Below the pieces are notes generated by a model. That model was not told the origin of the DNA, ran no database searches, and saw only the letters and a list, made by a program, of their open reading frames with translations. A program made the translations under genes and the position numbers. Shown in pieces: positions 550 to 1,263 of a stretch of 16,304 nucleotides of DNA (positions are counted from its first letter, which is position 1; each line of letters opens with the position of its first letter). Source of the stretch: a virus; the UHGV virus genome UHGV-0193351. One strand, 5' to 3'.

Positions 550-1158
550 CTATAAAATGTGCTCTAGAATCCGCATATTTCCTTCAAAAAGTATTTCCTT
601 TTTTAACGGATCAACTATTTCACCACTCCAATATTTATGAGCTTTTTCTAAGGCAATATCATACGGTATATCGTCATTCATCAAATGTTCATCACTCGCC
701 TCATGTATAACTCCATCCAGCTCAACTCTGAACACAGTCTGATTGTCCCCCAATCCCAACTGCGAAATCCAATAGTGAAGACTTTCTTCACCTTGTGAAA
801 CCCATAAGCATTTCTGTCTTGAAGGCTTTTTTGGGTAATATTCAACTCGAACGGCTTCCCAAATCAGTTCTCTAGTATATTTACAAAAATGCATAGCCAA
901 TTCTTGACCAACTGCCGCTATATCCTGTACAGAACACTTAGTAGTAAGTGACCCTGTCTTTAGGCCATAAAGCCACTGCATTCTCGTATAGTCAGTTAGA
1001 TGCCCGTTAACATTTACTGGTATTGGAGGGATGTTTGAACTTAAGAAATAATTAAAAAAGGGATTTGGGAATGAGGTGCTAGCTAAATCTCCTACTGCCA
1101 AAGGCCTATACTTAACCCAAGGATTTTGCGATTTAGTTGCTATGTAAAAATAGTCCAT
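550..1158 (-). CDS. hypothetical protein, AT-rich orphan (moron candidate) between lysis cassette and HNH
   Basis: 202-aa minus-strand ORF, start ATG at 1156-1158. Visibly AT-rich compared with the flanking Rz and HNH genes. I recognise no family signature. AT-rich upstream region carries tandem repeats. Confidence 0.55.
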   Translation of the reverse strand: MDYFYIATKSQNPWVKYRPLAVGDLASTSFPNPFFNYFLSSNIPPIPVNVNGHLTDYTRMQWLYGLKTGSLTTKCSVQDIAAVGQELAMHFCKYTRELIWEAVRVEYYPKKPSRQKCLWVSQGEESLHYWISQLGLGDNQTVFRVELDGVIHEASDEHLMNDDIPYDIALEKAHKYWSGEIVDPLKKEILFEGNMRILEHIL

Positions 1159-1163
1159 GCGTA

Positions 1164-1197
1164 CTTACCACTATAAAAAAGACACCTTACCACTATA
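1164..1197 (-). promoter_or_regulatory. tandem 12-bp direct repeat CTTACCACTATA x2 (minus strand TATAGTGGTAAG), 22 bp apart, upstream of the 550-1158 gene
   Basis: Exact 12-bp copies at 1164-1175 and 1186-1197. Each contains a TATAGT -10-like hexamer on the minus strand. Candidate promoter or regulator-binding sites. Confidence 0.4.
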
Positions 1198-1263
1198 TTT
1201 TACACAAGCAACCAACATTTAGCAGCACCTATTCGCAATAACTATTTATTCCAGCAAAAGAGT

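Follow-up and report, generated by a model that had tools for sequence, protein, structure and literature searches.

An AT-rich DUF2441 gene of ADP-ribosyltransferase fold as optional cargo between the lysis and packaging genes of lambdoid prophages

Results

What is an AT-rich open reading frame (ORF) of 202 codons doing at the point where a lambdoid prophage passes from its lysis genes to its packaging genes? The question is raised by UHGV virus genome UHGV-0193351, a stretch of 16,304 nucleotides (here called the window), in which the ORF occupies positions 550-1158 of the minus strand, between the spanin genes Rz/Rz1 and a gene for an HNH endonuclease. An earlier reading of the letters alone (the sequence-only reading) had placed the ORF there, had called it strikingly AT-rich against its neighbors, and had suspected a moron, that is, optional cargo, at a point where lambdoid phages may carry genes such as bor or lom. 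We found that this slot, of the bor/iss type, is the classical variable cargo position between lysis and packaging genes, because iss, DUF6979, or other genes take this place in related prophages, and that the gene encodes a DUF2441/BC2332-family protein of 23 kDa that is cytoplasmic and has an ADP-ribosyltransferase (ART) fold. With slightly better than even confidence, we predict a moron with a weak promoter of its own, low expression in the lysogen, its own terminator, and additional late read-through.

Translation (ATG start, TAG stop at 552-550) and the RefSeq record WP_000384431.1, which is the same coding sequence with an identical protein and bears the label "DUF2441 domain-containing protein," both confirmed the ORF. 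Its position was likewise confirmed by the Pfam hits of its neighbors. Upstream, the lysis cassette ends with the Rz spanin gene (1264-1746, minus strand; PF03245), in which Rz1 is embedded (1305-1511, minus strand; PF06085); downstream, the packaging module begins with the HNH endonuclease gene (128-478, minus strand; PF01844, E 2e-16), which is 95.5% identical to the HNH gene of phage SfI as far as position 478, where the homology stops. The GC content of the ORF is 0.381 (0.325 at third codon positions, GC3) and that of the 105-nt region upstream of it 0.352, compared with 0.558 for the HNH gene, 0.501 for Rz, and 0.517 for the lysozyme gene, so that the AT-rich composition seen at first inspection held up (0.38 versus 0.50-0.56). 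The homologous loci show the same contrast, with values of 0.38-0.44 for the DUF2441 gene and 0.45-0.59 for its flanks. The protein is under purifying selection, with dN/dS of 0.09 and 0.22 against its two closest non-identical homologues.

The comparison with related prophages that the sequence-only reading had suggested showed that the gene is variably present. It was found in 50 of 5426 complete Escherichia coli genomes, where every copy is chromosomal and at least 99% identical, and several of the carriers are labeled O25b:H4-ST131. Over positions 1-8558 the window shares 99.8% identity with a prophage of strain AHB10 (L001, the AHB10 prophage), whose head genes are of the HK97 type, whose tail is contractile, and whose early and lysis region is lambdoid. 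Among related prophages, by which we mean those sharing either the HNH/P27-type terminase or the Rz of the window, some with the same HNH/TerS carry iss exactly in the slot on the opposite strand, against the late operon; others have a DUF6979 gene with a small ORF there (as does phage SfI) or another hypothetical gene. Homologues with 78, 66, 59, 48, 46, and 41% identity were located between spanin/lysis genes and terminase genes, on the late-gene strand, in six of six cases. Together with the locus of the window they form a set of seven enterobacterial loci (41-100% identity), to which the comparisons below refer.

The constant position between spanin and terminase across these seven loci would suit a conserved accessory component of lysis or packaging. 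Against this stand the flanks themselves, which comprise holins, endolysins, and spanins of several types and at least four unrelated terminase types (Hendrixvirinae TerS, Nu1/GpA, Terminase_2, and P27-family with HNH), as well as the existence of near-identical packaging modules without the gene and the finding of a homologue in only one of 50,697 isolated phage genomes, that of Cronobacter phage phiES15. The mosaic flanks and the sporadic presence exclude such a component in practice, and we consider it highly improbable. A late-operon component conserved in all related phages, the outcome by which the sequence-only reading had proposed to refute itself, was thus not found. In the literature, morons are extra genes that sit within a phage operon and are usually expressed independently, and the present gene combines sporadic occurrence at an operon junction with a distinct composition and its own, weak, downstream terminator. 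We judge it to be an ordinary moron with an ART-fold gene, for which a role in defense or lysogenic conversion would be plausible.

The limits of the inserted segment could be approached from both sides. DNA homology to other DUF2441 loci by blastn runs from about position 1166 to 497 of the window and, in the comparison with the closest non-identical locus, ends 8 nt before the ATG; Rz homology to other phages ends near 1286; and the stretch 1159-1300 was found only in the 50 gene-carrying E. coli genomes. Because of these homology limits and this co-occurrence, the cassette would extend roughly from 497 to 1286. It would include the AT-rich intergenic region upstream of the gene (1159-1263, minus strand), a candidate promoter and 5' leader, and a conserved 3' tail (497-530, minus strand; TTGCCATCACCATGG..., with a second small hairpin), at which blastn and the alignment place the end of DNA homology to the other DUF2441 loci. 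No Rfam family was matched in 480-1300.

The gene itself is mosaic. Positions 900-497 of the window share 81% DNA identity with the allele of a Scandinavium prophage (L009, 6265-6669; blastn), a match that takes in the 3' 60% of the gene and the terminator tail, and positions 909-516 and 549-497 match a further locus (L020; blastn). The N-terminal ~85 residues diverge faster than the remainder of the protein, and one homologue (P0006), that of the Scandinavium allele, has 39% identity to the window protein in the N-terminal 85 residues and 84% in the C-terminal part. Because of this difference and the restriction of the DNA match to 900-497, the comparison points to recombination within the gene, and one part of the protein may set specificity in an arms race.

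We then considered the transcription signals around the gene. Immediately after the stop codon, RNA folding gave a terminator-like element (531-549, minus strand) with the stem CGCC/GGCG (548-545 with 540-537), the loop TTCT, and a run of six T residues (536-531). At the same place, three homologous loci (L009, L012, and L020) show CCRCC-N4-GGYGG and then T5-7; one G-C pair is replaced by A-T, a compensatory change. In two more (L010 and L019) a hairpin lies slightly farther downstream. Q-modified polymerase ignores such terminators, and a moron transcribed separately within a late operon needs one immediately behind its gene. The hairpin lends support to the independent unit that had been suspected from the sequence.

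On the upstream side, six of the seven loci have a TATnnT hexamer whose end lies 27-33 nt before the ATG, and in four of those six it is the sole one within 90 nt; no acceptable -35 element was found with it. The Cronobacter locus has an identical TATAGT at exactly 33 nt, and in the window the hexamer at the conserved position is the TATAGT in the distal copy of a 12-nt repeat. The chance value of this placement, about 3e-5 with the loci treated as independent, overstates the significance, because the distance window was picked post hoc and some of the loci are related. The promoter proposed by the sequence-only reading thus gains an aligned -10-like element in six of seven loci and lacks both a hit in the sigma-70 scan and a good -35 hexamer.

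On the basis of these features, we propose that the cassette in the lysis-packaging junction of this lambdoid, SfI-like prophage would be a self-contained moron, composed of an AT-rich leader with a weak promoter (its -10 being the distal TATAGT), a stand-alone gene, and a small intrinsic terminator. Low-level transcription in the lysogen would end at the terminator of the gene, and Q-antiterminated late transcription would also read through it; such late expression is likely because the gene is always co-oriented with the late operon. Several observations weigh against this model. The terminator in the window is weak, with a stem of only 4 bp (below the 5-pair threshold of the scan) and a fold z-score of -1.7; the consensus scan gave no sigma-70 site on the minus strand; and the best manual promoter candidates reached 8 of 12 matches with poor -35 hexamers. 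In addition, a late-expressed function would account just as well for the co-orientation in seven of seven loci and for the gap of just 39 nt that follows Rz in the Cronobacter locus.

The last two points are those on which a late-expressed effector of the lytic cycle would build. In this alternative, a Q-dependent late transcript would provide a protein that ADP-ribosylates a host or competitor target late in infection, or that enters the next cell, and serves counter-defense or host takeover rather than the lysogen, in the manner of T4 Alt/ModA/ModB or the anti-CRISPR ART AcrIF11. The common orientation and the short upstream gaps agree with it, whereas a purely late gene would have little use for a terminator placed directly behind it. 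The AT-rich composition, the sporadic presence, the related phages that have the same packaging module and do without the gene, and the distant homologues in prophage immunity regions also argue against it, and we regard a purely late effector as a possibility of the second rank.

From the repeat in the upstream region, an independent and possibly regulated promoter had been suspected. The 12-mer CTTACCACTATA on the plus strand (TATAGTGGTAAG on the coding strand) is present in exact copies at 1164-1175 and 1186-1197. The exactness of the repeat was thus correctly recognized, whereas its "22 bp apart" is the period from start to start, the gap being 10 nt. When the 105-nt region was shuffled 20000 times, 12 of the shuffles contained a direct repeat of 12 nt or longer. 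The distal copy (1186-1197, minus strand) contains the candidate -10 TATAGT (1197-1192), which ends 33 nt before the ATG; the proximal copy (1164-1175, minus strand) lies partly over the ribosome-binding region (GGTAAG), with its end 5 nt before the ATG, and is lineage-specific. Searches that allowed up to 2 mismatches in the window and up to 1 mismatch in 36.7 kb of the same prophage gave no further occurrence of the 12-mer. A MAFFT alignment of the upstream regions contained no conserved repeat; the exact repeat is absent from the homologous loci, and the closest of them (L007) has a diverged counterpart, caattggaagta, at the position of the proximal copy. No regulator gene is adjacent, and we know of no operator with this 12-mer. 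An operator function is not supported, given the lack of recurrence in the prophage, of an adjacent regulator, and of the repeat in homologous loci, so that the regulated promoter found no comparative support. The exact repeat would most simply be a lineage-specific local duplication of the -10/leader segment.

With respect to the protein, the sequence-only reading had recognized no family, and the profile and Foldseek searches it had suggested ended this orphan status. Pfam DUF2441 (PF10386) was matched with 44.2 bits against a gathering cut-off of 25 (E 2.5e-11), and phrog_9842, one of two matched PHROG families, neither with a function, over the full length. A profile of 99 homologues matched Protein Data Bank (PDB) entry 2AUA, Bacillus cereus BC2332, over nearly its full length with E 3e-23, at a sequence identity of 21-23%. 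The AlphaFold2 model built from 99 sequences had a mean predicted local distance difference test score (pLDDT) of 94, and Foldseek retrieved 2AUA with E 1e-12 and Arr with a probability of 0.92. Structure comparison of the model showed the ART core fold, with the rifampin ART Arr as the nearest characterized structure; also named in the comparison were the Rhs toxins TreX and TreTu, AvrPphF ORF2, PARPs, DarT, the RES/ParT/MbcT toxins, Tpt1/KptA, and AcrIF11. These results agree with the literature, which places DUF2441 in the ART clan of Pfam, and with SCOP, in which a "BC2332-like" family sits in the ADP-ribosylation superfamily; a structure-template analysis has matched the 2AUA site to the catalytic site of diphtheria toxin, as a prediction of diphtheria-toxin-like function only. 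Exhaustive phmmer at E <= 1e-3 brought together 629 clusters (50% identity), a moderate size for a family. NCBIfam gave only one spurious sub-threshold match, and the BFVD structure library just three uncharacterized phage proteins. A Salmonella RNA-seq table lists one DUF2441 gene, whose kinship to the present clade could not be established, as mildly up-regulated in a regulator mutant; because of this entry, a DUF2441 homologue can be said to be transcribed in growing culture.

An alignment of 230 members revealed 15 family-invariant residues, all of which are kept in the window protein (N32, R96, E97, E101, R104, P112, S113, R114, W119, W130, G149, Y176, W177, E188, and G193). Two candidates for the catalytic acid of ART motif 3 emerged, namely E188, which begins the last strand (187-200) and is conserved in 229 of the 230 members, and position 155, for which the alignment with Arr weakly suggests correspondence to its catalytic Asp. 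The invariant E188 appears to be the better candidate. Judged from these residues, the catalytic equipment would be mostly intact and non-canonical at motif 1, and the protein is a predicted enzyme.

Further points count against the proposed model as it concerns the protein. Motif 1, a His or Arg on strand 1 that positions NAD+, is Tyr5 here (F-Y-I-A), at a position where 196 of 221 members have His (Y-H-I-S); Tyr is found in 21 of the 221, and His and Tyr alternate among close relatives. The assignment of the N-terminal strand as ART strand 1 is based on a weak hhalign match to FYHGT of Arr and on the order of the secondary structure. Position 155 is Asp in 129 members and Ser in 54, as it is here. 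Because the strand-1 His is replaced by Tyr and position 155 is Ser, catalysis does not seem assured. In the literature, searched also by WP accession and Pfam number, we found no paper testing any DUF2441 protein, and the defense models of PADLOC-DB v2 gave 0 families at E <= 1 for this protein.

Tyr5 and Ser155, the residues to which His and Asp have changed in the enterobacterial prophage clade, are also the basis for an alternative in which the protein has the ART fold and no transferase activity, and binds a ligand (NAD+ or ADP-ribose) or a protein instead. Two weak, co-linear hhalign matches set these residues opposite the H and the catalytic Asp of Arr, with the N-terminal strand opposite FYHGT and the hairpin 141-156 opposite IVEPTGPFEDD, and a review gives H as the first residue of both the H-Y-E and the H-Y-D motif. 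These matches, however, were insignificant (E 0.11 for the family against Arr-3 alone; E 0.06, with a probability below 1%, against the Arr profile) and were taken as co-linear hints only. The retention of E188, E97, E101, R104, PSR112-114, and W119 argues for activity, the His/Tyr alternation in close relatives suggests that Tyr is tolerated, and the same review lists an Agrobacterium 6b ART with Tyr residues in its motif as active in vitro. We consider an inactive protein rather doubtful, though worth keeping in mind.

A related possibility is a lysogenic-conversion gene for an Arr-like resistance enzyme that ADP-ribosylates a small molecule such as an antibiotic or toxin. Arr is the nearest characterized fold, but Pfam gave no match to PF12120 (Arr), the hhalign match to the Arr profile is insignificant, and of the H-Y-D motif the H is Tyr and the aligned D is Ser in the window protein. 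No recurrent link to resistance genes was seen in the prophage clade. We judge this explanation to be unlikely.

One metagenomic homologue (P0097, 272 aa) has an N-terminal ATP-cone domain (PF03477, E 1e-14) fused to DUF2441. This was the sole informative fusion found, and it hints at nucleotide regulation of some family members.

Returning to the self-contained moron, its product probably uses NAD+ to ADP-ribosylate a target outside the essential host machinery. The target would be a component of an incoming phage or a small molecule, which would make the gene an accessory gene for defense or lysogenic conversion rather than one for lysis or packaging. Across the seven loci no neighbor gene is conserved, the upstream and downstream genes differing in every locus; the small downstream ORFs of the other loci are mutually unrelated, and the antisense ORF at 504-710 is not conserved. 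Because no adjacent gene or antisense ORF is conserved, there is no antitoxin candidate, and this absence argues against a self-poisoning toxin. The same finding bears on the possibility that the protein is a DarT-, RES-, or ParT-like toxin that kills the infected cell as part of an abortive-infection or toxin-antitoxin module. The ART fold is shared with these toxins, yet the protein has no PADLOC match and no conserved partner of the kind that accompanies the toxins of DarTG, RES-Xre, ParST, and MbcTA, and we think such a module unlikely, marginally more so than an Arr-like enzyme.

Distant members of the family are also found on mobile elements. One lies in an Acinetobacter prophage region next to HicAB, another in a prophage immunity region between Cro/CI-type repressors and near an AAA_15/21 gene and an integrase gene, and a third beside a gene with a weak match to the Shedu nuclease domain SduA_C. 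Tentatively, the enterobacterial prophage DUF2441 clade may be a new single-gene conflict system, in which an antitoxin-free, non-canonical Tyr-Trp-Glu ART, placed at the lysis-packaging junction and so made in the lysogen and late in infection, would modify a component of competing phages or of host defenses, its faster-diverging, recombining N-terminal third setting the target.

In 18 contigs (the P0059 loci, including L016-L018), a DUF188 (YaiI-family) gene comes directly after a distant DUF2441 gene, which is also adjoined by genes for single-stranded DNA-binding (SSB)-like and AAA/VWA proteins. The DUF188 gene was the only recurrent neighbor found for any family member.

Discussion

The protein family, its fold, the moron concept, and the RefSeq DUF2441 label are already known, and a DUF2441/BC2332 structure has been solved since 2005. 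In no paper did we find it described that many unrelated lambdoid prophages carry members of one DUF2441 clade between their lysis and packaging genes, nor did we find the conserved terminator and -10-like element or the Tyr variant of motif 1. One DUF2441 clade is thereby seen to be a recurrent, position-specific cargo of enterobacterial lambdoid prophages. This context, which includes the ST131-labeled carriers, gives the family a concrete and testable setting in phage-host or phage-phage conflict, and it singles out Y5, R114, W119, and E188 for mutagenesis. Should the protein prove to be an active ART with a role in defense or counter-defense, the known repertoire would gain a single-gene ART that has no antitoxin; otherwise the gene would be one more uncharacterized moron. 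Nothing in the sequence forces a new mechanism.

Among characterized or structurally known proteins, BC2332 (2AUA) is a member of the same PF10386 family and similar over its full length in sequence and fold. It differs from the window protein at two sites, with the strand-1 His in place of Tyr5 and Asp in place of Ser155, and it is itself uncharacterized. Arr (PF12120, H-Y-D) is likewise a small, stand-alone, cytoplasmic ART-fold protein and shares co-linear local motifs, YH(I/G)(S/T)...IGD and a strand-turn-acidic segment. The two are not significantly related in sequence, and DUF2441 is set apart by an additional helical insert of ~80 residues that bears its most conserved residues.

With respect to position, lambda bor and E. 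coli iss offer the closest parallel, as the slot between Rz/Rz1 and the packaging genes is the same. The DUF2441 gene is optional, compositionally foreign, and flanked by candidate transcription signals, in keeping with the definition of a moron. The proteins of bor and iss are unrelated to DUF2441; lambda Bor is a lipoprotein and Iss is annotated as "increased serum survival lipoprotein," whereas the window protein is cytoplasmic with an enzyme fold. Furthermore, iss is transcribed against the late operon, whereas the DUF2441 gene is always co-oriented with it.

T4 Alt/ModA/ModB, AcrIF11, and DarT (of DarTG) share with DUF2441 the ART fold and carriage on mobile elements, and they take part in phage-host conflict, in which DUF2441 may have a role as well. 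CmdT is another phage- and defense-associated ART. All of these belong to other ART clades (of the R-S-E or DarT type), and DarT and CmdT have cognate antitoxins or chaperones, of which there are none here. The Gifsy defense gene GiPD474 was taken up as a lead and dropped, as it encodes an ATPase-domain protein and not a DUF2441 protein.

Other Features of the Window

Upstream of the slot, the lysozyme gene (1728-2261, minus strand; Pfam) is preceded by genes matching DUF1327/YdfR and a phage-21-type holin (Pfam). A full-length match to the small RNA family STnc100 (140 bits; 3061-3260, minus strand) lies between the holin gene and a cluster of three tRNA genes (3337-3586, minus strand). This cluster, just downstream of the Q antiterminator gene, encodes Arg-TCT, Arg-TCG, and a tRNA with a CAT anticodon that ARAGORN assigns to Met and RefSeq to Ile.

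In the prophages with DUF2441 homologues, the gap between Q and the holin gene is a second cargo slot with defense-like contents. These are an AAA_15/AAA_21 ATPase with a 368-aa partner in L020 (116-2834), NA37 with a 407-aa protein in L007 (1583-3984), and a Ser/Thr kinase with a PP2C phosphatase in L012 (2970-4489).

An AT-rich gene pair at 6291-8047 of the window (minus strand; GC 0.38-0.44) matches the RosmerTA models of PADLOC. The ORF at 6291-7436 matches RmrA, of the helix-turn-helix (HTH) plus peptidase type, with E 5.5e-102 and is a "helix-turn-helix domain-containing protein" in RefSeq; the ORF at 7433-8047 matches RmrT weakly (E 7.5e-10) and is a "hypothetical protein" in RefSeq. 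By these matches, a recognized defense system, RosmerTA, is probably carried in the nin region of the same prophage.

A type I toxin-antitoxin locus of the hok/sok type lies at 8214-8539 (minus strand); Rfam matches sok at 8364-8539 with 117 bits, and the identical prophage has an annotated hokD. Just past hok/sok there is a mosaic junction, and beyond 8558 the window and the AHB10 prophage differ in the replication/immunity region (8559-15800 of the window versus 26009-34220 of L001). Past the junction, DUF1627, an IstB/DnaC-like ATPase, YdaT, and an HTH repressor are found in the window, and the AHB10 prophage has a SEC-C protein, a copy of ISEc52, and a dsDNA-nuclease gene. Finally, DicF antisense RNA (Rfam, 76.7 bits) was matched at 16107-16158 on the plus strand, beside a dicB/ydf-type region as in Qin-like prophages.

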